64,000 nt of DNA, taken from positions 480,001 to 544,000 of the forward strand of contig CBDDCA010000005.1 in assembly GCA_965226055.1 (NCBI GenBank), read 5' to 3'. Under the pieces are notes generated by a model. The model did not search any database and was not told the origin of the DNA. It saw only the letters and a program-made list of their open reading frames with translations. Source of the stretch: Spirochaetia bacterium. Its GTDB lineage: Bacteria; Spirochaetota; Spirochaetia; WTKD01; G963693115. A program made the position numbers and the translations under genes. Below, one piece after another: positions 3,663 through 28,368 of the stretch (within the stretch, counting starts at the first letter, position 1; the number at the start of each line of letters is the position of its first letter).

Positions 3663-3669
3663 ACTCTCT

Positions 3670-4548: not shown

Positions 4549-4557
4549 TAGTTGGAG

Positions 4558-4586
4558 TTGACATGTGTAACCATCTGTATTACAAT
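4558..4586 (+). promoter_or_regulatory. Sigma70 promoter of infC
   Basis: TTGACA-17 nt-TACAAT, followed by SD AGGAG. Confidence 0.85.
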
Positions 4587-4615
4587 ATGAGTATGTTTAG
4601 GAGAAATTTTTTCGT

Positions 4616-5173: not shown

Positions 5174-5197
5174 CAGTATTTATTACTATCGTATATA

Positions 5198-6502: not shown

Positions 6503-7262
6503 CTTTTTCCAATCTCCCTACTATACTCCCTTCAATTATTTCAAAAGAGATAAATCGCTGTACTTTCGCTATATTTGCTACTTTGCTTAAAAAATAATAC
6601 ATTTTTCTCAACATATCTGCATCAAAGTGTAGATCACTTGTAATATATTGGGCATAATCAGTAAAATGAATATCAACTAATGTAAGAGTATCTTCTCGTT
6701 TGATAGCAAACTCAGATACTTTTGTAAACAACGATGGATTATCTTTTTTTATTATATCAATTTGCTGTATAAATGATAAAAGCCATGAAGGGAGTACTAC
6801 CCCTGGCGTAGGATTTTTAATAACGACTCCCGAAAGGATAGGAACATCTACTATGCCATTTTGCACCCCTACCTGAATACACTTCCCTTCCCTATCAAAA
6901 TAGGAAGGGGTTGTTTTGTTGTCAACAGTAGCTAAGATACTCACAATAGGCCTTGCACGCGTGAGAGTAATAACTAATGTTGAAAATAGCGTTTTCTTTA
7001 CTTTTGCAGTATAAATAAGCGGGCTTGCTTCTAATGCGAGTACTATATTTTTCTTATTTATATCTATATATTTCTGTGGTAATTGTAAGTCAGTAATGTT
7101 TTGTATATCTTCTGTGGATAACTCTATATCTCCTTCTACATACATTTTAGTAATTTTTTGATTATATATATATACTAACAATAGTATACTGAGAACAACA
7201 ATAATACAAAGTAGTACTACAAATCGTTTTGCTATCGGATATTTTTTCTGTATATGTGTCAT
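6495..7262 (-). CDS. ftsQ: Cell division protein FtsQ/DivIB
   Basis: Single N-terminal TM followed by a POTRA-like region; located between ftsW and ftsA. Confidence 0.8.
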   Translation of the reverse strand: MTHIQKKYPIAKRFVVLLCIIVVLSILLLVYIYNQKITKMYVEGDIELSTEDIQNITDLQLPQKYIDINKKNIVLALEASPLIYTAKVKKTLFSTLVITLTRARPIVSILATVDNKTTPSYFDREGKCIQVGVQNGIVDVPILSGVVIKNPTPGVVLPSWLLSFIQQIDIIKKDNPSLFTKVSEFAIKREDTLTLVDIHFTDYAQYITSDLHFDADMLRKMYYFLSKVANIAKVQRFISFEIIEGSIVGRLEKDG

Positions 7263-8509
7263 AGCGCTGTATTCTCCTGTAAAGTACTAGTACTGCTATC
7301 TGCTATTTTTGCTGCTTTCAGTAAAAAAGCATAGGTTACAAGGGTAGTGATTAACGAAGTTCCTCCCGAAGAAAAGAAAGGCAGATTAAGTCCTGCAGTG
7401 GGCACAAATCCTAATACTACCATTATATGACCTAATGCTGATATCACAAGATTAAAAAGACATCCTATACTTACATAATAATAGAATTTATTACACTCAA
7501 AAAGTATATTACATATCTTTAAGCAATAATAGCACAACATTAAATAGAGACCAATGACAATACCTACTCCTAAAATACCAAACTCATGTAATATGATTGA
7601 AAATACAAAATCATTATTAAAGTAAGGCAATATCAAAACATCTAACATGGAACTTCCTAAGCCATTCCCTAAAATACCTCCTTTGCGAATTAAGTCATAC
7701 GATTGCTCTACTTGAAAATTTATACCTTGTGCATCAGAATTAGGATTGAAATAGGAAAAAATGCGTAATGATCTAGTTTTATCATTAAAAACAAGAAAAA
7801 TGAACAATATAATAATACCTAAAAGTATCGATACCTTCCATCGTTTATGAATATCAGAAACAAATATGAGAGCTGATACTATTGAAAAAAATATGAGCAA
7901 AGAGGAAAAGTCTCCTTGTAAATAGAGTCCTCCCCCATACATCACTATTGCATACATAAACAGCAAAAATAGCTTTCTTGTACTACGACTTCGTTGTATT
8001 GTATCCATAGTGTGTACAATAGTATTGTATTGTGAAAGTAAATATGCCATATACAGAATAAGCACTATGCGTACAAAATCACCAGTTTGAATTGATACTC
8101 CCGCAACACGTATCCATCGTTTTACTCCATTTATTTCAGGAGCAAAAAAATAGGTATACACCATAGCAAGCAATGCCACCACTGACACAAAAGGAATGCT
8201 GTTTTTTATCTTTTTTGTAGATATCTTTTGTATCCATATAAGCCCTATAATGCCAAGAATTGCTGCAATAAGCTGTTTTGAAAATAAAGTCAATATGCCT
8301 ACTGTTGGATAATCATATGCTCCTCCAACATTTCTTCCATTTTGAATAGAAAAACTATACGAAACAGAAAATGATAATGCAAGCCCTACTCCAAGAAATA
8401 TAATAAGCATGAGTTGAAATTTTTGTGCGTATATTCCATTTTGTATCGACATCATACTGTTGTCTTGCTGTGAAGAATAATGCTGTACTTTATTATCGTT
8501 ATATATCAT
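7259..8509 (-). CDS. ftsW: SEDS family peptidoglycan polymerase FtsW
   Basis: NGVKRWI, GGILGNGLG, NDFVFSIILHEFG and GLNLPFFSSGGTS motifs; dcw position. Confidence 0.92.
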   Translation of the reverse strand: MIYNDNKVQHYSSQQDNSMMSIQNGIYAQKFQLMLIIFLGVGLALSFSVSYSFSIQNGRNVGGAYDYPTVGILTLFSKQLIAAILGIIGLIWIQKISTKKIKNSIPFVSVVALLAMVYTYFFAPEINGVKRWIRVAGVSIQTGDFVRIVLILYMAYLLSQYNTIVHTMDTIQRSRSTRKLFLLFMYAIVMYGGGLYLQGDFSSLLIFFSIVSALIFVSDIHKRWKVSILLGIIILFIFLVFNDKTRSLRIFSYFNPNSDAQGINFQVEQSYDLIRKGGILGNGLGSSMLDVLILPYFNNDFVFSIILHEFGILGVGIVIGLYLMLCYYCLKICNILFECNKFYYYVSIGCLFNLVISALGHIMVVLGFVPTAGLNLPFFSSGGTSLITTLVTYAFLLKAAKIADSSTSTLQENTAL

Positions 8510-8527
8510 AGTTGCCTTATATGGTAT

Positions 8528-9607
8528 TTACCGTATTTTGAGTGTTGATAATGCTATTATTAAAAAAATTGTTCCTAATATCCAAAAGCGTACTACTATT
8601 TTACTTTCAGACCAACCACTAAGTTCAAAATGATGATGAAGTGGAGCCATCTTAAACACTCGTTTTTTTCTCAGTTTATAGCTTAGCACTTGTATTATGA
8701 CCGAAGTTGTTTCAATGACAAGCACCCCACCAAGTAATAATAATAATAATTCTTGTTTGATCACAATTACAATCAGACTTATGAGTCCTCCTAATACTAA
8801 ACTTCCTGTATCTCCCATAATAATAGATGCAGGATATGCATTATGCCATAAAAACCCTAGCATTGCTCCAATGATAGCGAGACTTACGATAGTAAATTCA
8901 CCAGCATGCTCTACAAAATGAACTTGCAAATATTCGGAATAATCTACACGCCCTATCACATAAGAAAGCACTGCTAATCCAACTGTTATAAATATGACTA
9001 CCCCTGCAGCTAACCCGTCCAATCCATCAGTAATATTAACCGAATTACTTGTACTAATAATTATCAAGACTACAAAAGGAATATAGAAATACCCTATATT
9101 TACATATATGTCCTTAAAGAAAGGAAAATAAACATAGCTGTTTTCTTTTCCACTCACTAACAACAGTACTATTGCTGTTACTATCCCTATACATATTTGT
9201 CCTACCAGTTTTGTTATTGCTTGTAGCCCTCTTTTTTTTGTTACTGTTAGCTTAAGATAATCATCAATGAACCCAAGTATGCCAAAACAGACAAGAACAA
9301 ACAAAGTAAGCCATGTATAAGGCAACGCAACATCCATCCATAAAAGAACACTCATACCTATTGCAATATTAATTGCTACTCCTCCCAAAGTGGGAGTACC
9401 TTTTTTCTTTTTATGTGTTTCAGGGCCATCACTTCGAATTACCTCACCAAAATGATATTTTCTTTGTAAAGAAATAAGAAAACGAGACAATACTGTACAC
9501 AATATAAATGCAGTAATGGCTGCATACGCAGAACGGAATGTTATATATTGAAATATATTAAAAAAAGAAACATTTTCAAATAAAGGAAACAATAATATTT
9601 TTATCAA
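8528..9607 (-). CDS. mraY: Phospho-N-acetylmuramoyl-pentapeptide transferase
   Basis: KKGTPTLGG, GFIDDY, NSVNITDGLDGLA, MGDTGSL, APLHHHFE. Confidence 0.97.
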   Translation of the reverse strand: MIKILLFPLFENVSFFNIFQYITFRSAYAAITAFILCTVLSRFLISLQRKYHFGEVIRSDGPETHKKKKGTPTLGGVAINIAIGMSVLLWMDVALPYTWLTLFVLVCFGILGFIDDYLKLTVTKKRGLQAITKLVGQICIGIVTAIVLLLVSGKENSYVYFPFFKDIYVNIGYFYIPFVVLIIISTSNSVNITDGLDGLAAGVVIFITVGLAVLSYVIGRVDYSEYLQVHFVEHAGEFTIVSLAIIGAMLGFLWHNAYPASIIMGDTGSLVLGGLISLIVIVIKQELLLLLLGGVLVIETTSVIIQVLSYKLRKKRVFKMAPLHHHFELSGWSESKIVVRFWILGTIFLIIALSTLKIR

Positions 9608-9632
9608 AATAACTCCTTAATATGCTACACAG

Positions 9633-11231
9633 TTATAACACATTATTTTTAATAAGCTCATGTAATGTATATGAATTGCTACCCTTTAAGATAACTGCAG
9701 TTTGATGTTTAGGCAATGATTGTATTATTGAGCGTATAAAGTCCTTTGCTTCATGAACAGTATTATAACAATGTTCAAGAGCTATATGTGAAAATTGATA
9801 TTCTTTTCCTATCCACACAACATGGGTAAGAGCAAGTGATTGAACAAAACGCACTAAGCGTACATGAAGATCATTACTAAAAGTTCCTAATTCTTTCATA
9901 CCTCCTAGTATTGCTATTGTATAGGTATACGATAAACTGACAAACCACTGTAAAGTGCATTGCATTGCTTCATAATTTGCATTATAAGAATCATCTATAA
10001 CAAGAGGTTCTTTACTTCTAATTTCAAACCTTTGCTTTTCATGCTGTACCCCTTTTAGTGATACAATACTCTCACTAAGAGAATATCCAAGATATTCTGT
10101 AACTTGTAGACTTGTATAAATATTAGCTATATTACTTGCACCAATAAAAGTATCAAGTACTATATGGATATTCTTATCAGCTGACTGTTTCTCTCCATCA
10201 CTTGTAGTATATGTAATGTCTATACCCTGTAGCTGCATATCTTGAATATGTAATTCTGCAGGCATAGATTTTTTTCCAAATAAAGTATAAGAAATGCCCT
10301 GTTTGTCAGCCATAGCTTGTAACTGTTTGTCTTCTTCTGGCAAAAATAACATTTTTGTTTGATGACGATGCTTTGCTATCTTTAGTTTTTCTGCTTGTAA
10401 TTCTTGCTTACTTGCATAGCCTCCTAAATGAGCAGTACCAACATTGGTAAGCACTGCAATGTCAGGAACAATCATATCCACCAACATATCCATTTCTCCT
10501 GTGGTGGAGATTCCATATTCCAATACAGCGTACCGAACATTATCCCATGACGCATTTAACACACTTATTGCTAAGCCTTGTATAGTATTTAAGTTCTTAA
10601 TAGAGTATACGGTGGGATGAAAATGCTGTAATATATGCACAAGCATGTCTTTTGTGGTAGTCTTGCCCATACTTCCACTAATTGCAATAATAGTAACAGT
10701 ATCTCTCTGTTTATTGATAGTATCTGTAGTAAGCAACATGAGCGCTTTCGTGCTATCTCTTACTACTATAAGAGTAATATTTGGAGACAAGAGAGATTGT
10801 ACAAACTCTTGAAATGCAGTGTCCTGCGTAGTATTCCTAGACATATTTTCAAAATGGACATCATATTCTGTAGCATAGTGTAACATATCCTGAGAAACAG
10901 TACCATTATTTTGTATGTGTTGATGTAAAAACTTTCTAAAAGCAACAATATCAATTACTGCAACAGACGCATGACTATCCATTACTTCCTGTATATAAGT
11001 ACCTCCATTAGTATAGTTTCCTGCTAACCCAAAAAAAAGAGTATGTGCAGAAACATTTCTTGAATCAATACTGACAAAGTTCCAGAAGGCTTCTTTGTTT
11101 CCGTATACTGCATATGCTAATTTTTGCTTACAAAAAACATCAATAAGCTCCTGTACTGTATGACGTGACACATTTCCTTTTGTATGAGACATAGTATTCT
11201 GTAATGGCTGTTTTTCTTCTTGTGTATTCAT
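9633..11231 (-). CDS. murF: UDP-MurNAc-tripeptide--D-Ala-D-Ala ligase
   Basis: SIDSR, P-loop GSMGKTTTK, NVGTAH, DDSYNAN, LGGMKELG, KGS; appears to carry an extra insert in the N-terminal domain. Confidence 0.92.
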   Translation of the reverse strand: MNTQEEKQPLQNTMSHTKGNVSRHTVQELIDVFCKQKLAYAVYGNKEAFWNFVSIDSRNVSAHTLFFGLAGNYTNGGTYIQEVMDSHASVAVIDIVAFRKFLHQHIQNNGTVSQDMLHYATEYDVHFENMSRNTTQDTAFQEFVQSLLSPNITLIVVRDSTKALMLLTTDTINKQRDTVTIIAISGSMGKTTTKDMLVHILQHFHPTVYSIKNLNTIQGLAISVLNASWDNVRYAVLEYGISTTGEMDMLVDMIVPDIAVLTNVGTAHLGGYASKQELQAEKLKIAKHRHQTKMLFLPEEDKQLQAMADKQGISYTLFGKKSMPAELHIQDMQLQGIDITYTTSDGEKQSADKNIHIVLDTFIGASNIANIYTSLQVTEYLGYSLSESIVSLKGVQHEKQRFEIRSKEPLVIDDSYNANYEAMQCTLQWFVSLSYTYTIAILGGMKELGTFSNDLHVRLVRFVQSLALTHVVWIGKEYQFSHIALEHCYNTVHEAKDFIRSIIQSLPKHQTAVILKGSNSYTLHELIKNNVL

Positions 11232-11264
11232 ACTCTCACTTATGTACTCTTTATTGTATCCATA

Positions 11265-11546
11265 CTATTCTGTAGCATAGCTTGGAACCTCTTCTATATC
11301 AAGAACTATTGTTTTTTCTGGGGTAATTTCTGACATAGAAAGTGCTTCTTTTAGCTTAAACAGATAATGAGGACTTTTATAGTATTCTATTGTTGCAATT
11401 TTCCTTTTATTCTCATCAATAAACTGTAGTTGCTTTTCGGCTAAATCTTTTTTTTGTAAGTAGTAATCAAAATATGCTCCTGATACTACTAATTTAACAA
11501 TCATAATAAATAGAGTTATAAGAACAAGTACTACTAATTTTCTCAT
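11265..11546 (-). CDS. FtsL-like bitopic coiled-coil protein
   Basis: 93 aa, N-terminal TM plus coiled coil, directly after rsmH (ftsL position). Confidence 0.6.
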   Translation of the reverse strand: MRKLVVLVLITLFIMIVKLVVSGAYFDYYLQKKDLAEKQLQFIDENKRKIATIEYYKSPHYLFKLKEALSMSEITPEKTIVLDIEEVPSYATE

Positions 11547-12532
11547 ACAATTTTTTCTAACACCCGTAATTTTGCACTTCTACTAGCTTTATTTGCATTT
11601 ACTTCATCAGTACTAGGAACAAGAGGCTTTTTATGCAACGCTACTCCACTATTAGAATATATATTATTGATGTTCGGAAAAAATTCGCTTATCTTTAGCT
11701 TCCCTTGAACAATACGAGAAAAATGCTTTACTATTCTATCTTCTAGGGAATGAAATGATATAACTGCCATTCTCCCTCCTTTCGCAAGGAGAGACCACGC
11801 TACAGGTAAGGCACGCTGTATTCGTAGCAGCTCATTGTTCACTTCTATACGCAACGCTTGAAAGAGTCGAGAAAGTATACTTCTGTCCTGCATTTTTTTT
11901 CCTAACTGTAAAGCATGGCATATATCACTCACGCTTTGTATGTGCTGTTCTTTTCTATACGACTGTATTCTTCTTGCCCATTTTACTGCTTGACGTTCTT
12001 CTCCATACATACGAAATACGGTACTTAACTCATGCTCTGTGTAAGTATTTACAATATCGAATGCTTTTGTTGTTTCTTTATTATTAAGACGCATATCCAA
12101 AAATTCATCGCCTTGCCAACTAAATCCTCGTTGAGAATGTATAAAATGGTACATCGAAACACCTAAATCAAAAAGAATTGCCTGCACTGTACTATTTTTT
12201 TGTTGCAAATGAGAAAATAAATCATCAAACCACATATTATAAAACTGTACACAATGTGTATACTCTATAAGATTTTTTTGTGCCATAGCAAGCATTTCAG
12301 AGTCTACATCATTTGCTATTAGTGTAAAACAAGGATCTGCTATAGATGAGGCACACTGTTCTTGATAAGAACAATTATCATATAATGATAATAAACGAAG
12401 CGAATGACCACCAAGACCAACAGTGGCATCAACACATATATTCTTTGTTGTATGCATTGATAAACAAGGAAACAAATATTTTGTAACCTCTGCGTCCATA
12501 ACCGGAGTGTGGACAGTACCACTGTTTAGAAT
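11543..12532 (-). CDS. rsmH: 16S rRNA m4C1402 methyltransferase (start extended to probable ATT at 12532)
   Basis: DATVGLGGHS, DLGVS, LFQALRIEVNNEL, ISFHSLEDRIVK, SRSAKLR. The conserved HTPV motif lies upstream of the ATG at 12499. Confidence 0.92.
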   Translation of the reverse strand: MLNSGTVHTPVMDAEVTKYLFPCLSMHTTKNICVDATVGLGGHSLRLLSLYDNCSYQEQCASSIADPCFTLIANDVDSEMLAMAQKNLIEYTHCVQFYNMWFDDLFSHLQQKNSTVQAILFDLGVSMYHFIHSQRGFSWQGDEFLDMRLNNKETTKAFDIVNTYTEHELSTVFRMYGEERQAVKWARRIQSYRKEQHIQSVSDICHALQLGKKMQDRSILSRLFQALRIEVNNELLRIQRALPVAWSLLAKGGRMAVISFHSLEDRIVKHFSRIVQGKLKISEFFPNINNIYSNSGVALHKKPLVPSTDEVNANKASRSAKLRVLEKIV

Positions 12533-12981
12533 TTGATGGACCCTCCCAGTTCCCTTATCGCTTCAACTTTCAACGGTTCTTGTTTTTCCATATAATGTTC
12601 ATAATTACTTGGCTCCCATAGTTCAAAGTATTGCACCATTCCCACCATGATAGCCTTGTCTTTTATTCCAATCCTATCCAGTAATTGCTGATTTATACTC
12701 AACCTTCTTGTTTTTTCCTCTATTTCCTGTTCAAAAGAAAAAGATACAAAATATCGCATAAGAGCCTTATTAGTAGACTCATCAAGAGGAGAAGAATTAC
12801 TCGTTATACGCTGCACTAACTGTTGCCAGTACTGTCGTGGAGTGATCCAGATACAGCTTCCTTCACACCCTAAATTAACAAATACTCCCCTATCATCCAT
12901 ATGGCTTATTTGCTTAGAAGGAAACGAGAATCTCCCTTTATCATCAATAGTAACAAGATAACTCCCACTAAATATATTCAT
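12526..12981 (-). CDS. mraZ: Division/cell wall cluster transcriptional repressor MraZ
   Basis: FSGSY..TIDDKGR..FP and G....FELW motifs; first gene of the dcw cluster. Confidence 0.92.
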   Translation of the reverse strand: MNIFSGSYLVTIDDKGRFSFPSKQISHMDDRGVFVNLGCEGSCIWITPRQYWQQLVQRITSNSSPLDESTNKALMRYFVSFSFEQEIEEKTRRLSINQQLLDRIGIKDKAIMVGMVQYFELWEPSNYEHYMEKQEPLKVEAIRELGGSIKF

Positions 12982-14295: not shown

Positions 14296-14311
14296 ATTGG
14301 AGGTATTTGCT

Positions 14312-15253
14312 ATGGGACAATATCAGGATACTCTGTGTATAACCCATTTATTTTTACAATATTCTGAAAAACAAAAAGAGAACATACCAGATGCACAATT
14401 TTATTATGATGAATTATTTAGTGCAATTAGAAAACATGTATATACATATCCACAAAGACTTAACTCACATAACACTCTTGAAATAAGCAGTGAATTTCTT
14501 ATATTCATGGAAAATAAAATTAACTCTTATATTAGTAATTTTGAATATACAGGAGTCCCTTTTGAATACTACTTAAATACTATCTTAAAATTTCAATTCT
14601 ATAGTTTCTTAAAACAATATAAACAAGAAATACAGGAATATAAGTTTTTTGAAAATGCTTCTGTGTACAACATTTTGGATATACCAACATATACTAATGA
14701 ACAATCTATAAAATATGAAAAGCCAGAAATGTCCCTTCCTTTTGCCATTAAAACACTTAATGATATTGTAAAAAATTCAAAACACAGCAAAGCTTTCAAA
14801 AAACGTCTATGGTGGTTTACATTAAAATATATGCATATTCTAAAAGAAAGCAATATTACTATATTATTACAGACCTGTGAAGAAAGCATGTCAAAATTTT
14901 TATTTTTTAAGTCACGGTTAAAAAAGCACATCACAGCGTATGAAGAAAAGATACATAAAATTAGAATACAAAAAAATCTCTATTTTTCTAAATGTAGAAA
15001 AATAGAACTTCGATTAGAAGAGACATTAACAAACAAAGAATATGAAAAACTACAGAATCTTTTACAAAAATATAAAGCACGGTATCAAGCAATATTTGAA
15101 AAATATGAAAGATATAGCGTACAGGCACTCATTTCTAATGAAGAGTTATCTCAGTTATTACATGTACCAAAAGGAACAATTGATTCTGGACTTTATTTCT
15201 TTCATATCAAATGTAAGGAGCAGTATAAAAACCATGCCTATACACTAAAATAA
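14312..15253 (+). CDS. Divergent sigma-factor-like protein with C-terminal region-4-like HTH
   Basis: C-terminal SNEELSQLLHVPKGTIDSGLY resembles a sigma70 region 4.2 HTH; central coiled coil; ATG 14312 has SD GGAGG. Confidence 0.55.
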   Translation: MGQYQDTLCITHLFLQYSEKQKENIPDAQFYYDELFSAIRKHVYTYPQRLNSHNTLEISSEFLIFMENKINSYISNFEYTGVPFEYYLNTILKFQFYSFLKQYKQEIQEYKFFENASVYNILDIPTYTNEQSIKYEKPEMSLPFAIKTLNDIVKNSKHSKAFKKRLWWFTLKYMHILKESNITILLQTCEESMSKFLFFKSRLKKHITAYEEKIHKIRIQKNLYFSKCRKIELRLEETLTNKEYEKLQNLLQKYKARYQAIFEKYERYSVQALISNEELSQLLHVPKGTIDSGLYFFHIKCKEQYKNHAYTLK

Positions 15254-15359: not shown

Positions 15360-15433
15360 CGGGCTGTAGCGTAGTTGGTTAGCGCACTAGTCTGGGGGAC
15401 TAGGGGTCGCTGGTTCGAGTCCAGTCAGCCCGA
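15360..15433 (+). tRNA. tRNA-Pro (GGG)
   Basis: Acceptor CGGGCTG/CAGCCCG, anticodon arm CTAGT-CTGGGGG-ACTAG, GGTTCGAGTCC T-arm; no encoded CCA. Confidence 0.96.
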
Positions 15434-15476: not shown

Positions 15477-17882
15477 ATGAAACTTGAATATCTTTTATTT
15501 AACACAGTAATCGTTATTTTTCCACTCATATCCTCAATAGTTATCAGTATTCAAAAAACACAAGAAGCAAAACAAAAACGAAAAGCATTATTTTTTTTCT
15601 TTATAAGTTGTTTCATAACCGCTATTCCTTTTATTATCTGGGATGTATATGTTACGGACTTACACTGGTATTTTAATAAAAAATATATAACAGGATTACA
15701 TATTTTCAATCTTCCAATAGAAGAAATTCTCTTTTTCTTTACTATCCCCTATGCTACAGGGAGCTTATGGTTGATACTGTTTAATTCACATACACATAAT
15801 GGAGTTGTACACAGTTTTATACAAGACGGATACATGCATAGAGCAAAGGTTGTACATACCATGCGATGGATATATCCTTTGAGTATTGTTCTCCTATTTG
15901 TAGCGTTCTGGCTTCTTACCTATACCTCAAATAGTATAAACATAAACAATCATATTGAAAACGATACTATATATTTTGGCTATACTAAATTGACCGTAAT
16001 TGCACTTTGTCTTGCTATACTCTTTGATTATGCATTGGGCAGTAGATTGCTCCAGCAAATACGCTTTTACCCATTTATAGCACTATATGCTACTCTTAAT
16101 TTCATATTCAATGGGTATCTTACTGGACGCCCTATTGTATTATACAAAGAAGGACAATATTTAGGCATTCGGCTTGGCAGTACCCCTATAGAAGATTTTT
16201 TCTATGGATTAGCTTTGTTTATATTTGTGTTATCTTTACTGCATCACTTTACTGCAACAAAATCTGTTGAATCGCTGTTAAAAAAAATAATTCGCTTTCG
16301 ATTAAAAAATTATAAAATACAATATAACACTATTGATTATTCACTTCCTCTCTATTTATCAGAGAGCATTGCCAATAAAAACAAGAAAATAAAAGTAGCA
16401 GTAATAGGAGGAGGACTTGCAGGAATATCTTCTGCAATTATGCTAGCAGAACGAGGTTTTGAAGTACATCTTTTTGAAAAAAATAAGCATCTTGGAGGAA
16501 AATGTGGTGCATGGAAAAAAAATATAACAGGGATAGAAAACAGTACTATTGATCATGGATTCCATGGCTTTTTCCCTTGCTACTATAACTTACTTGATTT
16601 TTTAAGAACACATAACATACTACAAAAACATACTAAACGTATAGACAGATACACCATAGTAAACAAAGAACAAAAAATTACTCATCTTGATAATGCTTCT
16701 ACTACTCCTATCTACAACCTATTTGATTTACATAAAAAAAAGGTATTCAATCTCTTTCGTGCATTTTTTACTATTTCTAATCTTAAACTTATAGCAACAC
16801 TTAATTTTGATACACATAAAACTATTAAAAAGTATGATGATATTTCATTTCTTGATTTTAAAAAGCAAGCTCACTTACATACAGATATATCTTTTATTTT
16901 AACAATATTTGCTCGTGCTTTTTTTGCAAGTGAAGACAAACTTTCAACGGCACAGCTACTTAAGAATTTTCATATATATTACTTAAGCAATAACGAAGGG
17001 TTATTATATCATTACATATATCCCAATTATATAGATGGTTTTCTTACACCATTACAAGAGCTAATGGAACAGTATTCCATTACTATCCACAACAATACCC
17101 CTATTCATACTATCACAAGAGAACATAGTGATAATACCATGTATACATTCAATATAGAAGATGAAAATCACACTGTATACAAACAGTATAATGAAGTTAT
17201 TATTGCAAGCGATATACATGCCACTAAAAAAATTGTAGAAAATAGCCCTTGTTTTACTACTGCCTTACACAATCATACAGAAACAAATAATGCTACTAAT
17301 CAGATACAATCTCAAACAGTCACACAACAACTACAACATATTCCCATCAACCAAAGGTACTCTGTGTATCGCATTTGGATAAAAAATTGTACTATCCCTT
17401 TCGATAAATATTCTTTATTTACCAGTTTTGAGCGAATACACATATTAGATACAATCGCACAAGTAGATTTTTATGACGATGCTAGCAAAGTATGGGCAAA
17501 AGAGAATAACGGACATGTATTAGAATTACATTGTTATGCCGTGCCAGACTCTCTGCATGATGAACAAAGCATAAAAGAAGCGTTCTTACAAGACTTAGCA
17601 TATTATTTTTCTCAATTTACTCCTGATACTTTAGTGCATGAGGATTTACAGATAAACGATAATTTTACCCCATTTACTGTTGGACTTGATTCATATAAAC
17701 CTACAACTGACTCTGGTATTAAGGGCTGTTACTTTGCAGGAGATTGGGTATCACTCCCTGTACCATGTAGCTTACTAGAAGCCGCTCATACAAGTGCCCG
17801 ATTTGCAGCAAATAAGATAGTATCAAAGTATGATTTACAAGAATTTTCTATACATTCCGTTCCATTAAAAGGACTCATATAA
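15477..17882 (+). CDS. Fusion of two membrane lycopene cyclase (CrtYc/Yd-type) domains and a CrtU-like FAD-dependent carotenoid desaturase
   Basis: N-terminal TM region has two cyclase motifs (WD...W.FN...G..I..LPIEEILFF and NGYLT..PIVLY......G.RLGSTPIEDFFY). C-terminal region has GGGLAG (FAD), HGFHGFF..YYNL, AFFA....LS.A.L...FHIYYL.N.EGLL, VLELHCYA and FAGDWV..P....LE.A..S...AAN. Confidence 0.85.
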   Translation: MKLEYLLFNTVIVIFPLISSIVISIQKTQEAKQKRKALFFFFISCFITAIPFIIWDVYVTDLHWYFNKKYITGLHIFNLPIEEILFFFTIPYATGSLWLILFNSHTHNGVVHSFIQDGYMHRAKVVHTMRWIYPLSIVLLFVAFWLLTYTSNSININNHIENDTIYFGYTKLTVIALCLAILFDYALGSRLLQQIRFYPFIALYATLNFIFNGYLTGRPIVLYKEGQYLGIRLGSTPIEDFFYGLALFIFVLSLLHHFTATKSVESLLKKIIRFRLKNYKIQYNTIDYSLPLYLSESIANKNKKIKVAVIGGGLAGISSAIMLAERGFEVHLFEKNKHLGGKCGAWKKNITGIENSTIDHGFHGFFPCYYNLLDFLRTHNILQKHTKRIDRYTIVNKEQKITHLDNASTTPIYNLFDLHKKKVFNLFRAFFTISNLKLIATLNFDTHKTIKKYDDISFLDFKKQAHLHTDISFILTIFARAFFASEDKLSTAQLLKNFHIYYLSNNEGLLYHYIYPNYIDGFLTPLQELMEQYSITIHNNTPIHTITREHSDNTMYTFNIEDENHTVYKQYNEVIIASDIHATKKIVENSPCFTTALHNHTETNNATNQIQSQTVTQQLQHIPINQRYSVYRIWIKNCTIPFDKYSLFTSFERIHILDTIAQVDFYDDASKVWAKENNGHVLELHCYAVPDSLHDEQSIKEAFLQDLAYYFSQFTPDTLVHEDLQINDNFTPFTVGLDSYKPTTDSGIKGCYFAGDWVSLPVPCSLLEAAHTSARFAANKIVSKYDLQEFSIHSVPLKGLI

Positions 17883-17894: not shown

Positions 17895-17968
17895 TGGGCC
17901 CACTAGGACTTGAACCTAGGACACACGGATTATGAGTCCGTTGCTCTAACCAGCTGAGCTATAGGCCC
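17895..17968 (-). tRNA. tRNA with CAT anticodon, probably tRNA-Ile2 (lysidine)
   Basis: GGGCCTATAGCTCAG...ACGGA-CTCATAA-TCCGT...GGTTCAAGTCC...TGGGCCCA; acceptor stem and loop typical of Ile2. Confidence 0.9.
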
Positions 17969-18006: not shown

Positions 18007-18077
18007 TGCCAATGTAATGTAAAAATATCAGCTTAATTGAAGGATCATATTAAGTACTATTGTTATATACTATTATT

Positions 18078-18443
18078 ATGATAGATGGCACAGAAGAAAT
18101 GAGAAAAACATTAGAAAGATTTAATTTAAATTCAGTTGAAGATAAAGAAAAAATTGATTTTTTATTGTTATCATCTCGTAATTTTAATCAAGTATTAAAA
18201 AATGTTAGGCTACAATCTGAAACTCCACCAGTCGAGTTAGGAGAAATATATAATGAGAATATATACACAATAAAATCAACTATTATTATTACTTTACTTA
18301 AAGCAATCATTGAAAGAAAAAAACAACTTGATAGATTAGCACATTATATTGATAAGGGAATACATCATATATATAGAGGAATAATATGTATTTCTGTAAC
18401 TATTAGTATAATTATTTTGAATGTATTGATCAGTTTATTCTAA
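18078..18443 (+). CDS. Hypothetical protein with C-terminal TM helix
   Basis: ORF with ATG at 18078 preceded by TATACT-N6; C-terminal hydrophobic helix. Confidence 0.55.
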   Translation: MIDGTEEMRKTLERFNLNSVEDKEKIDFLLLSSRNFNQVLKNVRLQSETPPVELGEIYNENIYTIKSTIIITLLKAIIERKKQLDRLAHYIDKGIHHIYRGIICISVTISIIILNVLISLF

Positions 18444-18931: not shown

Positions 18932-21900
18932 CTACGATGAGGGACATGCTACTTTATCATTCTTAGTCTTTGGGTACTGTGCTTTTTTACCAGCCATAGC
19001 TGAACCTATAACCATATTTGCTACGTCAATGTCAATTTTACACAATTTCCATGATGATAAATTTTGATCAAAATTAATGGCATCTTCAAATACACCACTA
19101 ACTAGCTTAATATTCCTAACATTCCAATTTCCTATATCTTGATTAAAGGCTCTTGCCTCAAAAAACATCAAGGATATATCAGTTACTTCCTCAATATTCC
19201 AATTTCCTATATCTTGATTAAAGGCTCTTGTTCCCCTAAACATACCCCCCATATTCGTTACATTACTAGTATTCCACCGTGTTATATCTCCATTAAAAGT
19301 ACTATCTTGATAAAACAATTGATACATATTAGTAATAGCACTCGTATCTATCATGTTGAGGTTGGGGCTAGGGTTGCTACTCTTCCCTCCTGTAGCTTGC
19401 CTTGTTTTTTCTTCGCTGATAATAGTTTGTAGTGCTGATCTTGTTGTTGGTCTGTAATAGGTTTCTGCTTTTCCTGATGGTGCTGTTCTTAGCTCTGTCT
19501 GTATAACGATAGTGGCAGGTACTTTTTTCTTTGAAGCGGTTATTGTACATTGTACTACATCGTAGCTATATTCAGTAATAGCAGTGTCTCGTATATTGGA
19601 TTTGTTTGCTATGCCTGTTACAGTAACTGTTTTGCTACTCTGTTCAAACGATACTGCTAGCCCTGTCTCTTTTTTGATTTTCTCTGCATCTGCCTCTTGT
19701 ATATTGGCATCACAGGTAAAGGCATTGCCACTGGGTGTGCTTGCTAATACTCTTGTAGTATTTGATGCGAGTGCTGTGCCTACTGTTGCTGAAACTATGC
19801 TAGTGTTTCCTATAGATATTGCACTTACTTCAAATTCATGGCGTTCTCCTGTTGATGCTTTTGTAGGATCGGTGCTGTTTACTGCTTGTACTACTATTTC
19901 GTAGGTCGTTCCGTTTGTCAATCCTGTCAGGGTAGTGTTGGTTGTTCCTGCTGCTACTGTTGTGGGGCTTGAGTCTGCTTGTTTTATTGCTGCTACATTT
20001 CTTGCACTGCCACCTTTGGCTACTTTGTATACTTTGTACGATACCTGTGCTACTGTTAGGGTAGCTCCTGTATTTGCTTTGTGGCTTGCACTGAGGCTGG
20101 GAGCTGTCCACGATACTCTCATACCTGTCTGGGCTACTCTTGTCTGTATAGTTGATACTTCTGCAGGGGCTGTCGCTTGCGATGCGGTCGTTACGCTTGC
20201 CACTGACGATGCTACTTTTTTGCTTGGGTCTGTTTTTACTGCTACTTCTACCACAAAGTAATACTTTGTCGCTCCTTTTATTGCTACTACTGGTGCTGTG
20301 TCTGATGACAAGCCTAAACTGGCAAGGGCTGGTACTGTGTACACTCCGCTACTTGCACTGCCTAGGTTTATCTTTCTGCCTGCAAGTACTTCTGCTACTG
20401 TAGGGTCAGTGTCTTTCTGTAAGCCATACACTGTGTATGCTAGCTGATTGCTTGCTGTTATGCTTGTGCCATCGTAGTCTTTCGCTCCTGTAAATGTGCT
20501 TAGCTCGGTAAGTACCAGCTTTATTGTTCCTGTAGTATTTGTTGACGGTGATACTACCAGCTTTCCTGTGAGTAATGACTGATTTGGTGCTACTGCTTTG
20601 GAAGTATAGATTTCCTTTATTTCTGTTACATCGGTGTAAAAGCCTGCAGGAAAGAGCTTGTCACTATTTGTTGCATCGTAATTGGGGGATGTTGTGTTTA
20701 CTATCCTCACTCCTATGTAGTAGTCCTTTGCTGTTTCTATGGGCGTTGCTCCTGCATTGCTTCCACTGGTACTGTCTACTATTGCTATGGATATTGTGTC
20801 TTGAGTTGTTCCTGTTGCTTTTGTGTATTTTGCTACTCTTGTACTGGTTTTTTTCAATGCCCACAAGGCCGATACACTGGCAGGCTTTCCAGTGCTATCT
20901 TCTTTCTTGAGGTATAGCACATAGTAGGCAAGGTCTGTCGCTTCAAGGGCATTGCCATTTGCTTTGCTCACTCCTGCTATAGCTGAGGCATTGAGCTGTA
21001 CTGTTATGACTTTTTTCCCTCTGTTGCTTCCTGTTGTAGGCACTGCAAATACTACTGCATTACTGTTAGTGTAGGTTGTTACTTTTGGTGTGCTTGGGGG
21101 AGCGGTAAGCGTTGCTTTCTTTATTGTTACTGATGCTCCTATGCTATAGGCAGGATTGAGGCTGTTTATTGCTTCTACTCCTGCGGTATAGTCTGCTCCT
21201 TTTGTTCCTATAAATGTTGCTTTTAATGGAGTGCTGTTTCCTGCTAGCTCTCTTGTTTGTACTCCTGCAAGGGCTTTTATTTCGTCTAGTGTCTTTGTGC
21301 TGTGATCTCCTGCTGCTATGTATACTTTGTACTGTATTTGTGCCTGTGTGAGTTTTGCTCCACTGGGAGCTTTGTTATCATTGGTAATGTCTCCTGCACT
21401 AAATGTATAGACTGCTTTTGCAGTTGTTTGGGTTACTGACTCTACGGAGAGCTTTGCATCTTTGGGAGCGGGCGGTGCTGTTGAGGTGCTATCATATACT
21501 GCTACTGCATCACTCAGCGCGGTTACGGGGCTTACTCTGTTATTTGCTATTTGCAGAAAATCAAAGCGATAATTCTTGGCATTTGCTTGGCTCTTGGGTA
21601 CTTCTACGCCATCTGCTATCCCAAAGCTAATGGTGGTTGCTGTGTTTGTTATGCTTTTTTCTGCTATTAAGGTAGCTCCATCTTTCATACGCAAAGTATA
21701 GTATCGTCCTATGCCTGGAGCATTCTTAAAAGTTGCTTTTATTTGTATAGCTCCTGTTGTGTCTAGGGTAGGCTTGCTTTGAAAGAGATCCTCTGAGGGA
21801 GCTGTGAGTGAGTTGGGGGTGGTTATGTCTTTTGTTGCTTGGGTGCTTTTATTTTCTGAGTAATCAAGCGTGAGTATTGTTATGGTATATGTTTTTCCTT

Positions 21901-23581
21901 GCACAAGTTCTTCTACAGAGAGTGCTGTCGTGGGATAGGGTATTTTCTTCTCGCTCAGTACTGTGGTGCTTGTGCTTTTTTCTGCTATGCTTATACTGTA
22001 TTCTTTTATGTCTTTGTTCTTGGCTTTTGTCCCATCGGGGGCTGTCCATATTATCTGTGTGCCTATCTTTGCTGCTGATACAAAGGGATAGCTTGCTTGT
22101 ATGTTTGTCACTGCATCGGGGGCGGTGCTGTCTGCTGATGTGGTTACTGTGGCTGTTGCTTCTGTTCCTTTGTTGCCTGCACTGTCCATTGATACGACTG
22201 CCACTGTATACTCGGTGGTAGCTTTGAGGCCTGTTATCTGTGTGTTGCGTACTGTTCTCTCTGTTATTGTCACTGTCTTTGCAGGGGTACTGCTGTCTTT
22301 TTCTGTTGCTGTTATACTCACTCCTGCATAGTCTCGTACATCGGGAGCTTGCCAGCCTACTACTAGGCTTGTTGCTCCTCCTGTGGCACTCACATTGCTT
22401 ACAGGCTCTGTGCTTTTGTCTGTTGTTGCTTGTTCTTTTGATACTGCAGTGGAGTACTTTCCGTTTTGAGAAACATACACCTCTACTTTGTAAGTAAGCG
22501 TGCCATAGAGTTTTGTGAGTGCTATGCCATCTTTTGCCACATACACAGTGGCGTACTCTCTGTTGTCTGCACTTGCTCCGCTGACATTTGTTGCACTTGT
22601 GTCTTTATCTATTGTCTCCTCTGCTACTACTGTATTGGTTGCGGTTGCTATCACTCGTACTTGGAGGCTTTTTTCTGTACTTCCTGTTCCAAAGTTAAAA
22701 CTCCCCCACTTAATAAGCAGGCTTTCATCGGCTGGGCTATTGCTTTTATCGTTTGCTGTTACTGTAAGATCTGCCTCTGGGAGTGGCGTTACTGTCTGTG
22801 AGAGTGCTGATGGCACTATGCCTCTGAGTGCTTGCTTTGCCGTGCTTTTGTTACCGTTGCTATCTTTGTACACTACTACTATATCATAGCTGATGCCATC
22901 TATAGTGGGGACAGCAATGCTCACTTCTCCTTGTGTTACATCTTGTACTGTTACTTCTGTCTTTACCCCAGTAGTTCTTTCTATCACCTGTATTGTGGCT
23001 TCGGCTATGTCTGTTTTGCCTGACGAGAGCAGTGCTTTGTCCCATGTTAGCTTTATACCATTTGTTGCTGATTCTACTGCTACTTGGGTAAAGGTGTCCT
23101 GTGGTGCAGTTTCATCAGTAAGTGTTGTCACAGATCGGGTTATTTTTGGTGATACTTCTGAGTCTGAGCCTGAGTCTGATTTTTGAGCTTCTATCTCTAC
23201 AGTATAATCGGTAGTAGCGTGCAAGCCTCTGAGAGTGTAGGGTCTGTTTTGTTGAAACAATGCACGATATTCTATTGCAGGAACACGCACTTGTATTGAC
23301 TGGGCTGGTGCGGTAGATGTAGCTTTTACGACTACATGTGTGGCTTCGCTGGGAGCTTGCCAGCGTAACGAGAGTGTCCCATCGTTGCTTGCTGCTTGTA
23401 TCTGCACATTGGACACTGATGCGAGTGTCGGGGTTACTGAATTTCCCCCTCCGCCTGATGAACTGCTACTTCCCTCCGAACATCCTACGAGTACGAGGGT
23501 AGTCATTGCTAGCATCAATGCAACAACTATAGGTATATTCTGCTTACTTTGTAGCTTACTATTTAGATGATATTTTTTCAT
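18932..23581 (-). CDS. Large surface lipoprotein with fibronectin type III-like repeats and C-terminal DUF285 (BspA-type) repeats
   Basis: Lipobox VLVGC plus Ser/Gly linker; repeated FN3 signatures (SL.V.W.AP, ITGLK..T.Y.V.V); terminal FNQDIGNWNV-type repeats. Confidence 0.88.
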   Translation of the reverse strand: MKKYHLNSKLQSKQNIPIVVALMLAMTTLVLVGCSEGSSSSSGGGGNSVTPTLASVSNVQIQAASNDGTLSLRWQAPSEATHVVVKATSTAPAQSIQVRVPAIEYRALFQQNRPYTLRGLHATTDYTVEIEAQKSDSGSDSEVSPKITRSVTTLTDETAPQDTFTQVAVESATNGIKLTWDKALLSSGKTDIAEATIQVIERTTGVKTEVTVQDVTQGEVSIAVPTIDGISYDIVVVYKDSNGNKSTAKQALRGIVPSALSQTVTPLPEADLTVTANDKSNSPADESLLIKWGSFNFGTGSTEKSLQVRVIATATNTVVAEETIDKDTSATNVSGASADNREYATVYVAKDGIALTKLYGTLTYKVEVYVSQNGKYSTAVSKEQATTDKSTEPVSNVSATGGATSLVVGWQAPDVRDYAGVSITATEKDSSTPAKTVTITERTVRNTQITGLKATTEYTVAVVSMDSAGNKGTEATATVTTSADSTAPDAVTNIQASYPFVSAAKIGTQIIWTAPDGTKAKNKDIKEYSISIAEKSTSTTVLSEKKIPYPTTALSVEELVQGKTYTITILTLDYSENKSTQATKDITTPNSLTAPSEDLFQSKPTLDTTGAIQIKATFKNAPGIGRYYTLRMKDGATLIAEKSITNTATTISFGIADGVEVPKSQANAKNYRFDFLQIANNRVSPVTALSDAVAVYDSTSTAPPAPKDAKLSVESVTQTTAKAVYTFSAGDITNDNKAPSGAKLTQAQIQYKVYIAAGDHSTKTLDEIKALAGVQTRELAGNSTPLKATFIGTKGADYTAGVEAINSLNPAYSIGASVTIKKATLTAPPSTPKVTTYTNSNAVVFAVPTTGSNRGKKVITVQLNASAIAGVSKANGNALEATDLAYYVLYLKKEDSTGKPASVSALWALKKTSTRVAKYTKATGTTQDTISIAIVDSTSGSNAGATPIETAKDYYIGVRIVNTTSPNYDATNSDKLFPAGFYTDVTEIKEIYTSKAVAPNQSLLTGKLVVSPSTNTTGTIKLVLTELSTFTGAKDYDGTSITASNQLAYTVYGLQKDTDPTVAEVLAGRKINLGSASSGVYTVPALASLGLSSDTAPVVAIKGATKYYFVVEVAVKTDPSKKVASSVASVTTASQATAPAEVSTIQTRVAQTGMRVSWTAPSLSASHKANTGATLTVAQVSYKVYKVAKGGSARNVAAIKQADSSPTTVAAGTTNTTLTGLTNGTTYEIVVQAVNSTDPTKASTGERHEFEVSAISIGNTSIVSATVGTALASNTTRVLASTPSGNAFTCDANIQEADAEKIKKETGLAVSFEQSSKTVTVTGIANKSNIRDTAITEYSYDVVQCTITASKKKVPATIVIQTELRTAPSGKAETYYRPTTRSALQTIISEEKTRQATGGKSSNPSPNLNMIDTSAITNMYQLFYQDSTFNGDITRWNTSNVTNMGGMFRGTRAFNQDIGNWNIEEVTDISLMFFEARAFNQDIGNWNVRNIKLVSGVFEDAINFDQNLSSWKLCKIDIDVANMVIGSAMAGKKAQYPKTKNDKVACPSS

Positions 23582-26242: not shown

Positions 26243-27613
26243 CTAATGAGATGCTTTTAATAAAGCATTAGCAAAGTTATATAGTCTCTTTATTATAATA
26301 AGTATTTTATCCCCATACTCTGGATCTTTTGCCCATCTCCCACTTAAACCAAGTACTGTAGGAGAACTTCCAATCAATCCCAATCTTTCTAAAATAGGGT
26401 ATCGTGGATCTACTAATTTACCAACAAGTAAGTCACGAGTGGCATATCCTTTTAAGTGTTGTATATGAGCACGTATCCCAATTAACTCAGAAGGAAACCA
26501 ATGTCCTTCCGCGAATTGATTTATAGCACCAATACCAGCAAAATTAAACTGTTCTTTTTGTACTGTACCAGTAAAGCGCAAAAAATTAGTCTCAAGTAGC
26601 ATCTGTGCTATAGCAACATCATAATTAACATTTTCTCTATTTGATTCTTGAACATAATACGATACTATCTTCTCTACATATTCAACATTTAATGTAGGAA
26701 CATTATATAAAATAAAAGCAACAATCTCCTTTATATTAACTTTTCCTTCTCCAATAATAGACATATCCGATTGAGGAATAGGAATTTGCTCCACAGAAGC
26801 TCTATCATCATCAAGCTCTACCTCTATCTTTGTATCTTTTTCTGCTACAACAGGTTTGCTGATAGGAGGGTACGAAAAAATAATCTCTACTCTTCTATTT
26901 TTCCATCGTTGTTGTTCATCAGAAGCTAGCTGTTCACTTCCTCCCAATGCTTCTACTTGTATTCTTGTACTATCTACTCCCCTTTTAGCCAGTTCTTGCA
27001 ACACATAACTGGATCGTCTTTCGGACAGCGTTACTAAATTTCTCTTTCCTTCAACACTATTGATATCGCTTTCATTAACAACGGCAGCATGTCCTCTTAT
27101 GCGTATATTTGCAGAAGCAAGCTCCCTTTTTGCTTGTGCTGCAATGAAATCAAGTACGGCATCAGGGTCTCTATTTTGAAATATATCTTTACTGATATTG
27201 GTGGTATTACCATCAAAAAATAAAGTAGGAGCGTTTTGTTCACTCATACTCAAAAGAATCGCAAACTGTTTAATTTCTGTTTTTATCAGTTTTTCAAAAT
27301 CATTAAAGAAAGAAATACTCACTACATAGTTTACTGCAGAAAATACAGTTATATTGGGATCAAACTCCCATACATACCCACTTTGTAGCCATTGTTCTCC
27401 TTCATCTTGAAAAATAACTCTCCCATTAAACTCAGAGATACTCAATTCCCATTTATTGTATATATCAGGAGTAGCGGTTAAAAATCGGTATGGAAACCCG
27501 AATGTTTGTTCACCAGTTCTTACAGTAATACCAGCGGTAGGGGCAGTAAATTGCTGAGCAAATATACCAAAACACACATTAAAAAGCAGAATAATTATAT
27601 ATATTTTTTTCAT
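26243..27613 (-). CDS. OmpA-like peptidoglycan-binding domain fused to a GH73-type glucosaminidase domain
   Basis: Signal peptide; IRGHA...LSERRS..V...L...GV...RI...ALG...NRRVEI (OmpA); AQMLLETNFL..NFAGIGA...HIQHLKGYA...WAKDPEYG (GH73). Confidence 0.88.
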   Translation of the reverse strand: MKKIYIIILLFNVCFGIFAQQFTAPTAGITVRTGEQTFGFPYRFLTATPDIYNKWELSISEFNGRVIFQDEGEQWLQSGYVWEFDPNITVFSAVNYVVSISFFNDFEKLIKTEIKQFAILLSMSEQNAPTLFFDGNTTNISKDIFQNRDPDAVLDFIAAQAKRELASANIRIRGHAAVVNESDINSVEGKRNLVTLSERRSSYVLQELAKRGVDSTRIQVEALGGSEQLASDEQQRWKNRRVEIIFSYPPISKPVVAEKDTKIEVELDDDRASVEQIPIPQSDMSIIGEGKVNIKEIVAFILYNVPTLNVEYVEKIVSYYVQESNRENVNYDVAIAQMLLETNFLRFTGTVQKEQFNFAGIGAINQFAEGHWFPSELIGIRAHIQHLKGYATRDLLVGKLVDPRYPILERLGLIGSSPTVLGLSGRWAKDPEYGDKILIIIKRLYNFANALLKASH

Positions 27614-27735: not shown

Positions 27736-28368
27736 CTAATGACCATTATCAGAAACAGTTGTCAAAGCAGCATCTGTAGAATTATAAAAATACATGTTTC
27801 TTAAGACATCAAGAATATATTTTCCATAATAAGGACTATCACTCCATTTGTTTGAAAGTTCTGACACTTGTGTAATGCTCCCTATCAATTTCTTTTTCTT
27901 TAGTATTTCAAAGCGTGGATCTACATGAGGGCTAGAAACGGGATACTCACTTGCATAACTTTTTAAGTGTTGCACATGTGCATATACTCCTGCTTCTATG
28001 GTAGAAAATCTATGGAGAAACCAAATGGATATATCTGCTCCCCCTATACCTGCAAAATTATTGTATTGTTTAGGATATTCATGAGAAAACAATAAAAAAT
28101 TAGTATGATATACCATTTGGGCAATAGTGACATCATGATTTACCCCTTCTCTCTCAGAGGCTTCCATATACGCATTAACAATAGTTTGAAGATAGGAAAT
28201 TTCAAGACTAGGATTTTTTTCTAAAATATACTGTATGATCCATTCAGATTCTAAGTGCCCTTGTCCCATAATAGATATATCAGAAAAATTATAATTCTCT
28301 GTTGCATAGGAGCTAATCGGTATATAGATAGTTATCAGTATTAAAAAAAATCTTTTATATACTACCAT
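27736..28368 (-). CDS. Secreted GH73-like glucosaminidase-domain protein
   Basis: Paralog of the C-terminal domain of 26243..27613 (EGVNHDV.IAQM, NNFAGIG, HVQHLKSYA, WS..PYYG). Confidence 0.85.
   Translation of the reverse strand: MVVYKRFFLILITIYIPISSYATENYNFSDISIMGQGHLESEWIIQYILEKNPSLEISYLQTIVNAYMEASEREGVNHDVTIAQMVYHTNFLLFSHEYPKQYNNFAGIGGADISIWFLHRFSTIEAGVYAHVQHLKSYASEYPVSSPHVDPRFEILKKKKLIGSITQVSELSNKWSDSPYYGKYILDVLRNMYFYNSTDAALTTVSDNGH

Follow-up and report, generated by a model that had tools for sequence, protein, structure and literature searches.

A predicted carotenoid cyclase fused to a CrtU/CruE-family flavoenzyme in a deep-branching spirochete

Can a single gene both close the ring at the end of a carotenoid and turn that ring into an aromatic one? 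The question is raised by a 64,000-nucleotide stretch of contig CBDDCA010000005.1 (assembly GCA_965226055.1, a Spirochaetia bacterium; contig positions 480,001 to 544,000), which we call the window and to which coordinates refer unless a locus is named. Here a single open frame of 801 codons and a stop (15477..17882, + strand) encodes a protein, P0001, that an earlier note on this DNA had described as two cyclase domains joined in frame to a flavin adenine dinucleotide (FAD) enzyme; the translation, Pfam and NCBIfam all agree with that description, and 27 other fused homologues share it. To judge from its sequence, the gene probably specifies a bifunctional carotenoid end-group enzyme, which would act by cyclisation and then by aromatisation on a substrate from the organism's own phytoene pathway. 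Support for this reading comes from the architecture of the protein, the conservation of both its halves, the family placement of its C-terminal half, and the carotenoid gene clusters of its relatives.

The architecture supported by our searches is a two-domain cyclase of the CrtYc/CrtYd type followed by a CrtU/CruE-family FAD enzyme without a Rieske domain. Lycopene_cyc (PF18916; E 3.2e-20) and CarR_dom_SF (TIGR03462; 83.8 bits against a cut-off of 39.4) each match two stretches of P0001, and Amino_oxidase (PF01593; E 7.1e-28) matches residues 314-781; both kinds of domain thus pass the gathering or curated thresholds of their models. Rieske (PF00355) is not among the Pfam matches of the protein, just as the earlier note had seen no such domain. 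On the + strand, the first cyclase copy covers residues 4-94 (15486..15758; the best TIGR03462 stretch), with PIEE at 80-83, and the second covers residues 169-258 (15981..16250; the best PF18916 stretch), with PIED at 237-240. Between them lies a connector, residues 95-168 (15759..15980), delimited by an alignment of 16 fused proteins and by a structural model. A junction at residues 259-305 (16251..16391), recognized from alignments and from a short helix at 267-275 in the model, leads into the FAD-dependent CrtU/CruE-family domain at residues 306-801 (16392..17879), which is defined by PF01593, fold, trees, and motifs and carries GxGxxG at 311-316. The motifs that had suggested this assignment, namely, HGFHGFFPCYYNL, FFASEDKLSTAQLLKNFHIYYLSNNEGLL, ELHCYA, and AGDWVSLPVPCSLLEAAHTSARFAAN, along with PIEE and PIED, were all located in the translation.

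Conservation extends over both halves. The acidic PxE(E/D) motif of CrtYc/CrtYd-type cyclases has a role in catalysis, and in the 16 aligned fused proteins P80, E82, E83, P237, E239, and D240 are invariant, as are the glycines of GxGxxG and Y279 of the junction. When 28 fused proteins are aligned, invariance remains at P237, E239, G311, and G316, and conservation is 90% or higher at P80, E83, and D240. An AlphaFold2 model built from that 28-row alignment (mean predicted local distance difference test [pLDDT], 85.8; predicted template modeling score, 0.81) portrays the cyclase half as a polytopic membrane protein with seven predicted long helices within residues 4-258 (4-25, 29-59, 81-101, 132-154, 168-187, 197-217, and 238-258), followed by the short junction helix and by an alpha/beta FAD domain from residue 306. 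The helix at 132-154 is an extra one that lies in the connector, where pLDDT is low at 155-162; the connector also holds two lineage-specific inserts (alignment columns 101-170) common only to P0001 and its nearest fused relative, P0002. The best Foldseek match of the model in the PDB is rice phytoene desaturase (5mog; E 3.4e-23, target-normalized TM score 0.81, 18% identity), followed by nicotine and monoamine oxidases. Foldseek returned no PDB match to the cyclase half, and by sequence a PDB search picked up the FAD domain's dinucleotide-binding end and nothing else.

A frame of this kind could in principle be an artefact of assembly or gene calling that unites two separate genes, a concern that the earlier note had raised about the junction. 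We give this explanation practically no chance. The frame is continuous across P0001, and the junction proved genuine: P0002, a 71% identical protein from an independent contig, is collinear across it, as are another 26 fused proteins and 14 loci from separate assemblies, among them that of the isolate Enhygromyxa salina. A search of 90%-identity clusters returned 15 other clusters, 720 to 800 amino acids long, with both Pfam domains; P0002 is the nearest, and the others are 30 to 39% identical to P0001. An exhaustive search of 1.84 billion representatives (50% identity) gave 3,636 matches at an E value of 1e-3 or lower, 82 of them at 1e-30 or lower. About 14 of the best 150 of these 3,636 representatives have the fused length with both halves matched, and among the same 150 only P0002 exceeds 50% identity. 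The other full-length fused proteins number at least 27, P0002 included.

The idea that the architecture was unreported did not survive. Besides the 15 clusters and its occurrence at 14 of 80 loci, it is named in a 2022 study of myxobacteria (PMC9304148), in which the legend to Fig. 4 gives gene “Y” as “lycopene cyclase fused to CrtU.” Fused members also appear in databases under the names “isorenieratene synthase” (JGI) and “lycopene cyclase domain-containing protein” (NCBI). The fusion is thus already known from genome annotation, and the window protein is a divergent spirochete example of it. The 50%-identity representatives also include other fusions of the CrtU-like module (P0127, P0129, P0150, P0158, P0168, P0171, P0173, and P0242), the partners being a GT21 glycosyltransferase, a UbiE-type methyltransferase (twice), a fatty-acid-hydroxylase domain, a UbiA prenyltransferase, Rieske with DUF5914 (twice), and a ferritin-like domain; some of these eight may be gene-calling artefacts.

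How often, and in what way, were the two halves joined? Unfused relatives align from about query residue 245 to 270 onward, and the junction, which aligns throughout the fused proteins, is found in CrtU-like proteins without a cyclase as their native N-terminal extension. Since the junction is present at the N terminus of the unfused relatives, the cyclase has been joined directly to that native extension. In the tree of the C-terminal half, the fused or unfused state switches at least seven times, and an approximately unbiased test on this half rejected the grouping of all fused proteins in one clade (delta lnL, 103.2; p, 2.8e-5). A FastTree reconstruction of the N-terminal half places the window protein outside a 42-row, mostly fused clade (support, 96); a tree of this half under a better model has a backbone without resolution, conflicts with the FastTree result, and is compatible with a single origin. 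Taken as a whole, it is clear that the two activities have been coupled repeatedly and that fusion, adjacency, and separation all occur. The N-terminal half is of the same two-domain form as the CrtYcd lycopene beta-cyclases of Bacteroidota, Ignavibacteriota, and archaea (215 to 280 amino acids, 40 to 46% identity), but those proteins end after the second cyclase domain. In fungi, CrtYB, CarRA, and AL-2 are cyclases fused to phytoene synthase; P0001 resembles CrtYB in that a cyclase of the same kind is fused to a pathway enzyme but differs from it in the partner, for SQS_PSY (PF00494), the phytoene synthase domain, is not among the 18 Pfam families that it matches.

The placement of the C-terminal half was addressed by profile matches, trees, and motifs. 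All of its NCBIfam equivalog matches fall below their cut-offs: HpnE at 82.5 against 283.05 bits, ZDS at 73.4 against 622.15, and PDS at 50 against 569.4. Relatives from Pseudonocardia, Chlorobium, and cyanobacteria likewise show only sub-threshold HpnE or ZDS matches and match no CrtU-specific NCBIfam model. We rely on an IQ-TREE reconstruction (LG+C20 with posterior mean site frequencies, quick search, 48 rows, 474 columns) rooted on true HpnE (P0102 to P0104); truncated sequences (L033, L043, L044, L062, and L065) had been dropped, and near duplicates with at least 70% identity had been collapsed. The tree recovers the whole CrtU/CruE-like family with a support of 100. Proteins with a Rieske insert, of the Chlorobium and cyanobacterial types, lie at the base of the family, and Pseudonocardia together with P0100 (100) is sister (98) to a clade of 40 rows (99) in which the window protein lies among proteins that include those of Myxococcota, Bacteroidota, Ignavibacteriota, and Spirochaetota. 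A FastTree reconstruction of 95 rows agrees with this placement. Within the clade, P0001 and P0002 (100) join P0133 (91) and then, more weakly (87), unfused proteins that include those of two Spirochaetales metagenome-assembled genomes (MAGs) rather than the main fused clade of the myxobacterial type. The smallest well-supported set around the window protein comprises 20 rows (98), 8 of them fused and 12 unfused. By sequence, then, the C-terminal half is inside the CrtU/CruE family and far from HpnE. The prediction that it would cluster with CrtU/CruE therefore stood, yet a position together with actinobacterial CrtU did not, as the protein belongs to a separate sister clade.

The motifs tell the same story. 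An 11-row alignment contains HGFHxFF..YY, FHxY(F/Y)L, (V/L)ELHxYA, and AGDWV in all CrtU/CruE-type rows, and all are replaced in HpnE; the corresponding HGFHGFF..YYNL, FHIYYL, VLELHCYA, and AGDWV of P0001 line up with the rows from Pseudonocardia, Chlorobium, and cyanobacteria. Being common to actinobacterial, green-sulfur, and cyanobacterial relatives and lacking in HpnE, they are family-wide and not the actinobacterial signature for which they had been taken. Green-sulfur CrtU and cyanobacterial CruE share the family and these motifs with P0001 but branch deeper, have no cyclase fusion, and carry a Rieske [2Fe-2S] insert (CTHxGC ... CPCH, at about 247 to 330 of the C-terminal half) that P0001 lacks. 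Actinobacterial CrtU, as in the Streptomyces crtYTU operon, likewise belongs to the same FAD family, has the common motifs, and has no Rieske insert; it differs in being a stand-alone protein of the sister clade, with a separate CrtY-type cyclase (PF05834) and an adjacent methyltransferase and Rieske-DUF5914 gene. On a Streptomyces anulatus plasmid, for example, genes for a polyprenyl synthase, a phytoene desaturase, a phytoene synthase, and a DUF5914 protein face those for a lycopene cyclase, a methyltransferase, and an FAD oxidoreductase; the last, in the crtU position, is 26% identical to the window protein over 512 residues (E 4e-54). The CrtU proteins of Brevibacterium and Mycobacterium are further actinobacterial beta-carotene desaturases/methyltransferases.

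Gene neighborhoods indicate firmly that the role of the family is in carotenoid metabolism. We sampled the best 80 loci listed from species-representative genomes and counted neighbors within 10 kb. The fused architecture occurs at 14 of the 80, and 10 of these 14 have crtB and a crtI-type gene nearby. At 11 loci, 10 of them from Bacteroidota and Ignavibacteriota, a stand-alone two-domain cyclase of 224 to 248 amino acids lies near an unfused CrtU-like gene, with crtB and crtI in 9 of them; the remaining 55 have neither a fusion nor a separate cyclase, and crtB and crtI accompany the CrtU-like gene in 15. The fused loci include 10 from Myxococcota, E. salina (L004) among them, 2 from Binatota, and 1 labeled Pseudomonadota. 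At L055 the order is fusion, CruF-like gene, phytoene synthase, and glycosyltransferase; at L020 and L008 it is acyltransferase, glycosyltransferase, CrtI/D-type desaturase, geranylgeranyl diphosphate (GGPP) synthase, and then the fusion, which at L020 is separated from the GGPP synthase by a sigma-70-type gene. In Myxococcota the clusters further include genes for a CruF-like hydratase, a glycosyltransferase, and an acyltransferase, which together resemble the gene set for hydroxychlorobactene glucoside ester. The myxobacterial fusions (E. salina; Nannocystaceae, Myxococcaceae, and Binatia MAGs) are ordered like P0001, with a pair of PF18916 domains, the same junction segment, and then a Rieske-free CrtU-like FAD domain, and they conserve the PxEE, PxED, and FAD motifs. 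They differ in their low identity to P0001 (30 to 40%), their high-GC hosts, and their frequent position beside crtB and crtI, whereas the window protein has its lineage-specific inserts and no crt neighbors. Since 4 of the 14 fused loci, from carotenoid-making phyla, also have no crt neighbors, the isolated position of the window gene is not unusual.

A second neighbor recurs in these loci, a gene for a protein of about 330 amino acids with a Rieske [2Fe-2S] domain and DUF5914. It is adjacent to or near the CrtU-like gene in 27 of the 80 loci, among them 13 of 14 in Bacteroidota, 7 of 8 in Ignavibacteriota, 2 of 2 in Spirochaetota, and 1 of 41 in Myxococcota; examples are L063:885-1892, L078:6962-7999, L061:8970-9965, L073:10713-11699, and L081:8441-9457. 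Only 2 of the 14 fused loci have it within 10 kb. In Streptomyces, the DUF5914 protein likewise includes a Rieske domain and shows 43% identity to its Spirochaetales counterpart (E 5e-76). Rieske-DUF5914 appears to be a conserved partner of CrtU that has drawn little discussion: no paper on DUF5914 emerged from a search of full texts, and searches for literature on CrtU in Ignavibacterium and for work linking CruE, CrtU, and Rieske returned nothing relevant.

How might the fused enzyme work? Our account of its chemistry is inferred, and this applies to the two reactions, the aryl nature of the product, the acceptor of electrons, any hand-over from one domain to the other, and the origin of the substrate. 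The N-terminal 260 or so residues would protonate lycopene, or a monocyclic or hydroxylated C40 derivative, at a psi-end and so close a beta-ring. The junction helix may keep the flavoenzyme at the membrane surface, where the C-terminal half would dehydrogenate the beta-ring and, with a 1,2-methyl shift, yield a phi- or chi-aryl end; the product would be of the chlorobactene type with one ring or of the isorenieratene type with two. Channeling of the substrate between the domains is plausible, and an aromatic product is a reasonable inference. For the myxobacterial clusters, whose accessory genes resemble those for hydroxychlorobactene glucoside ester, a monocyclic aromatic product would fit. 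The substrate would most likely come from the organism's own phytoene pathway, encoded beyond the window.

The gene sits between two tRNA genes, as the earlier note had placed it and as ARAGORN and Rfam both show: tRNA-Pro (GGG; 15360..15433, +) ends 43 nucleotides 5' of the start codon, and tRNA-Met (CAT; 17895..17968, -) is convergent and lies 12 nucleotides past the stop codon. The mechanically called open reading frame (ORF) begins at TTG 15375 and overlaps tRNA-Pro; the start at ATG 15477 coincides with the N termini of 15 homologs in the alignment. An Rfam scan of the window matched only three tRNAs, and a promoter scan was uninformative (37 sites against 33.6 expected). The ORFs that flank this tRNA-bounded gene, 14297-15253 (+; 318 amino acids, 26.5% GC) and 18060-18443 (+; 127 amino acids), match no Pfam or NCBIfam family. 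In composition the fusion gene (GC, 31.3%; GC at third codon positions [GC3], 22.5%; codon-usage cosine, 0.945) is typical of the window genes, whose means are 32.8 ± 3.4% for GC and 23.5 ± 3.3% for GC3, and its composition gives no hint that it was recently acquired from the high-GC lineages in which most fusions occur. This typical composition, together with the 71% identical ortholog P0002, argues for a gene that has been maintained rather than recently imported.

MraY, which is encoded elsewhere in the window, supports a spirochete as the host, in line with the earlier note. The minus strand of positions 1-12981 carries the flagellar hook-associated genes flgL and flgK, infC, and a tightly packed division and cell-wall (dcw) cluster that consists of ftsA, a gene for an FtsQ-like POTRA protein, ftsW, mraY, murF, rsmH, and mraZ. 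The named relatives of MraY at 53 to 54% identity are all spirochetes (Spirochaetes, Spirochaetia, Spirochaeta thermophila, and Breznakiella), which points to a deep-branching spirochete lineage; further relatives are 99, 89, 77, and 71% identical. FlgL barely passes the PRK06663 equivalog cut-off (338.3 against 337 bits). The window also encodes sugar kinases and a Clp ATPase, and an ORF similar to an IS481 transposase (48506-49585, +) lies among sugar-metabolism genes, with a score below the cut-off (99.9 against 224 bits). Three giant predicted surface lipoproteins with PARCEL repeats, matching a Mbov_0838-family model, are encoded on the minus strand at 18932-23581, 32095-40137, and 58515-63887 (1,549, 2,680, and 1,790 amino acids); the first of these genes has a GC content of 43%, against a window average of 33.5%. 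Two more minus-strand ORFs, 26243-27613 and 27736-28368, match the C-terminal part of a cyanobacterial model, “hormogonium tapered terminus morphoprotein TftA” (E 1e-45 and 7e-32), both far below its cut-off; the former also has an OmpA-like region.

Several observations weigh against a cyclising and aromatising enzyme with its own phytoene pathway. P0001 is only 25 to 29% identical to its actinobacterial and green-sulfur relatives, it shares with P0002 a long branch and a composition flagged as deviant in the alignment, and the family labels of the reference rows derive from organism names and automatic annotation, not from characterized proteins. We found in the literature no biochemically characterized member of the 40-row clade or of the fusion, with most subscription journals outside the search. 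The main mechanistic doubt is that an enzyme without a Rieske partner may be incomplete, for the loci that pair a CrtU-like gene with Rieske-DUF5914 (27 of 80) include both of the Spirochaetales MAGs. That partner, crtE, crtB, crtI, and any other carotenoid gene were not found in the 64 kb: no further carotenoid gene was detected when 37 ORFs of 150 amino acids or more were run against NCBIfam or when phmmer exemplars were run against all ORFs of 80 amino acids or more, and profile hidden Markov models (CrtB, CrtI, GGPPS, CruF, and Rieske-DUF5914) and a search for a second cyclase matched only the fusion gene. The absence of crtE, crtB, and crtI from the window, which the earlier note had pointed out, is thereby upheld. 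Some of these points would also suit a carotenoid enzyme whose C-terminal half does not aromatise and instead performs another dehydrogenation of ring or chain, such as 3,4-desaturation or polyene desaturation, to give a cyclic but non-aromatic product. The 40-row clade is distinct from all clades with known aromatic-carotenoid organisms, to whose proteins P0001 is 25 to 29% identical, and its C-terminal half has a polyene-desaturase fold. To our knowledge, classical myxobacterial carotenoids are not aromatic, and for Myxococcota, Bacteroidota, Ignavibacteriota, and Spirochaetota our literature search returned predictions from genomes but no reported aromatic carotenoid. We nevertheless consider this explanation unlikely, as an aromatising ancestor is simpler for a clade nested between the Rieske-insert and actinobacterial clades, the family-specific motifs are retained, and Rieske-DUF5914 is a partner common to the Streptomyces crtU-position gene and to those of Spirochaetales and Bacteroidota.

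The source and nature of the substrate may also be read differently. If the organism itself lacks a phytoene pathway, the enzyme would use acyclic carotenoids from a host, the diet, or neighboring cells, or would be a leftover without a substrate. The 64 kb without crt genes and the lone position between two tRNA genes suit this view, as do a near-identical MraY whose contig of 2.36 Mb may point to a small genome, and the giant surface lipoproteins, which suggest a host-associated life. It is nonetheless distinctly unlikely in our estimate. The crtB and crtI genes are also missing within 10 kb at 4 of 14 fused loci and at 40 of the 55 loci with neither a fusion nor a separate cyclase, in phyla that carry carotenoid clusters; moreover, carotenoid genes in Nannocystineae are scattered as small blocks (PMC9304148). 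The invariant residues kept in both halves and the 71% identical ortholog imply selection. We know of no precedent for a bacterium that takes up and remodels exogenous lycopene. The fuller version of this scenario, in which a small-genome, probably host-associated spirochete without a phytoene pathway aromatises scavenged carotenoids with a one-gene module, a fusion formed separately from the main myxobacterial fused clade that acts without the Rieske partner found in most relatives other than Myxococcota, seems to us very improbable. We see only a slight chance that the substrate is some other polyprenyl lipid, for instance a chain derived from squalene or a carotenoid of the C30 or C50 type. 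The PF18916 family also includes C50 carotenoid cyclases, the best NCBIfam match of the FAD half is HpnE, whose substrate is a squalene precursor, and one representative joins the CrtU-like module to a UbiA prenyltransferase; yet the HpnE score is far below its cut-off, true HpnE is a distant outgroup, and the crtB, crtI, GGPP synthase, and CruF genes near the relatives make up clusters of the C40 type.

Fossil aromatic carotenoids serve as markers of green sulfur bacteria and of sulfidic, sunlit water. Two papers (PMC9342728 and PMC7395447) hold that CrtU-family genes in non-phototrophs weaken this biomarker reading, and two further sources predict isorenieratene capacity from genomes of Myxococcota (PMC10576062) and Binatota (bioRxiv 10.1101/2020.09.14.296780); among the matches listed for spirochetes and carotenoids, nothing relevant was found. 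The gene family, both domains, and the fusion were known before from genome annotation, and the gain is incremental: a deep spirochete lineage joins the holders of CrtU-family genes, and the compact form that unites a cyclase with CrtU recurs across several lineages. If the gene does encode a cyclase that hands its product to an aromatising flavoenzyme, one gene would turn the ends of lycopene into aryl ends, which would be useful for pathway engineering and for understanding how two membrane-bound steps are coupled.

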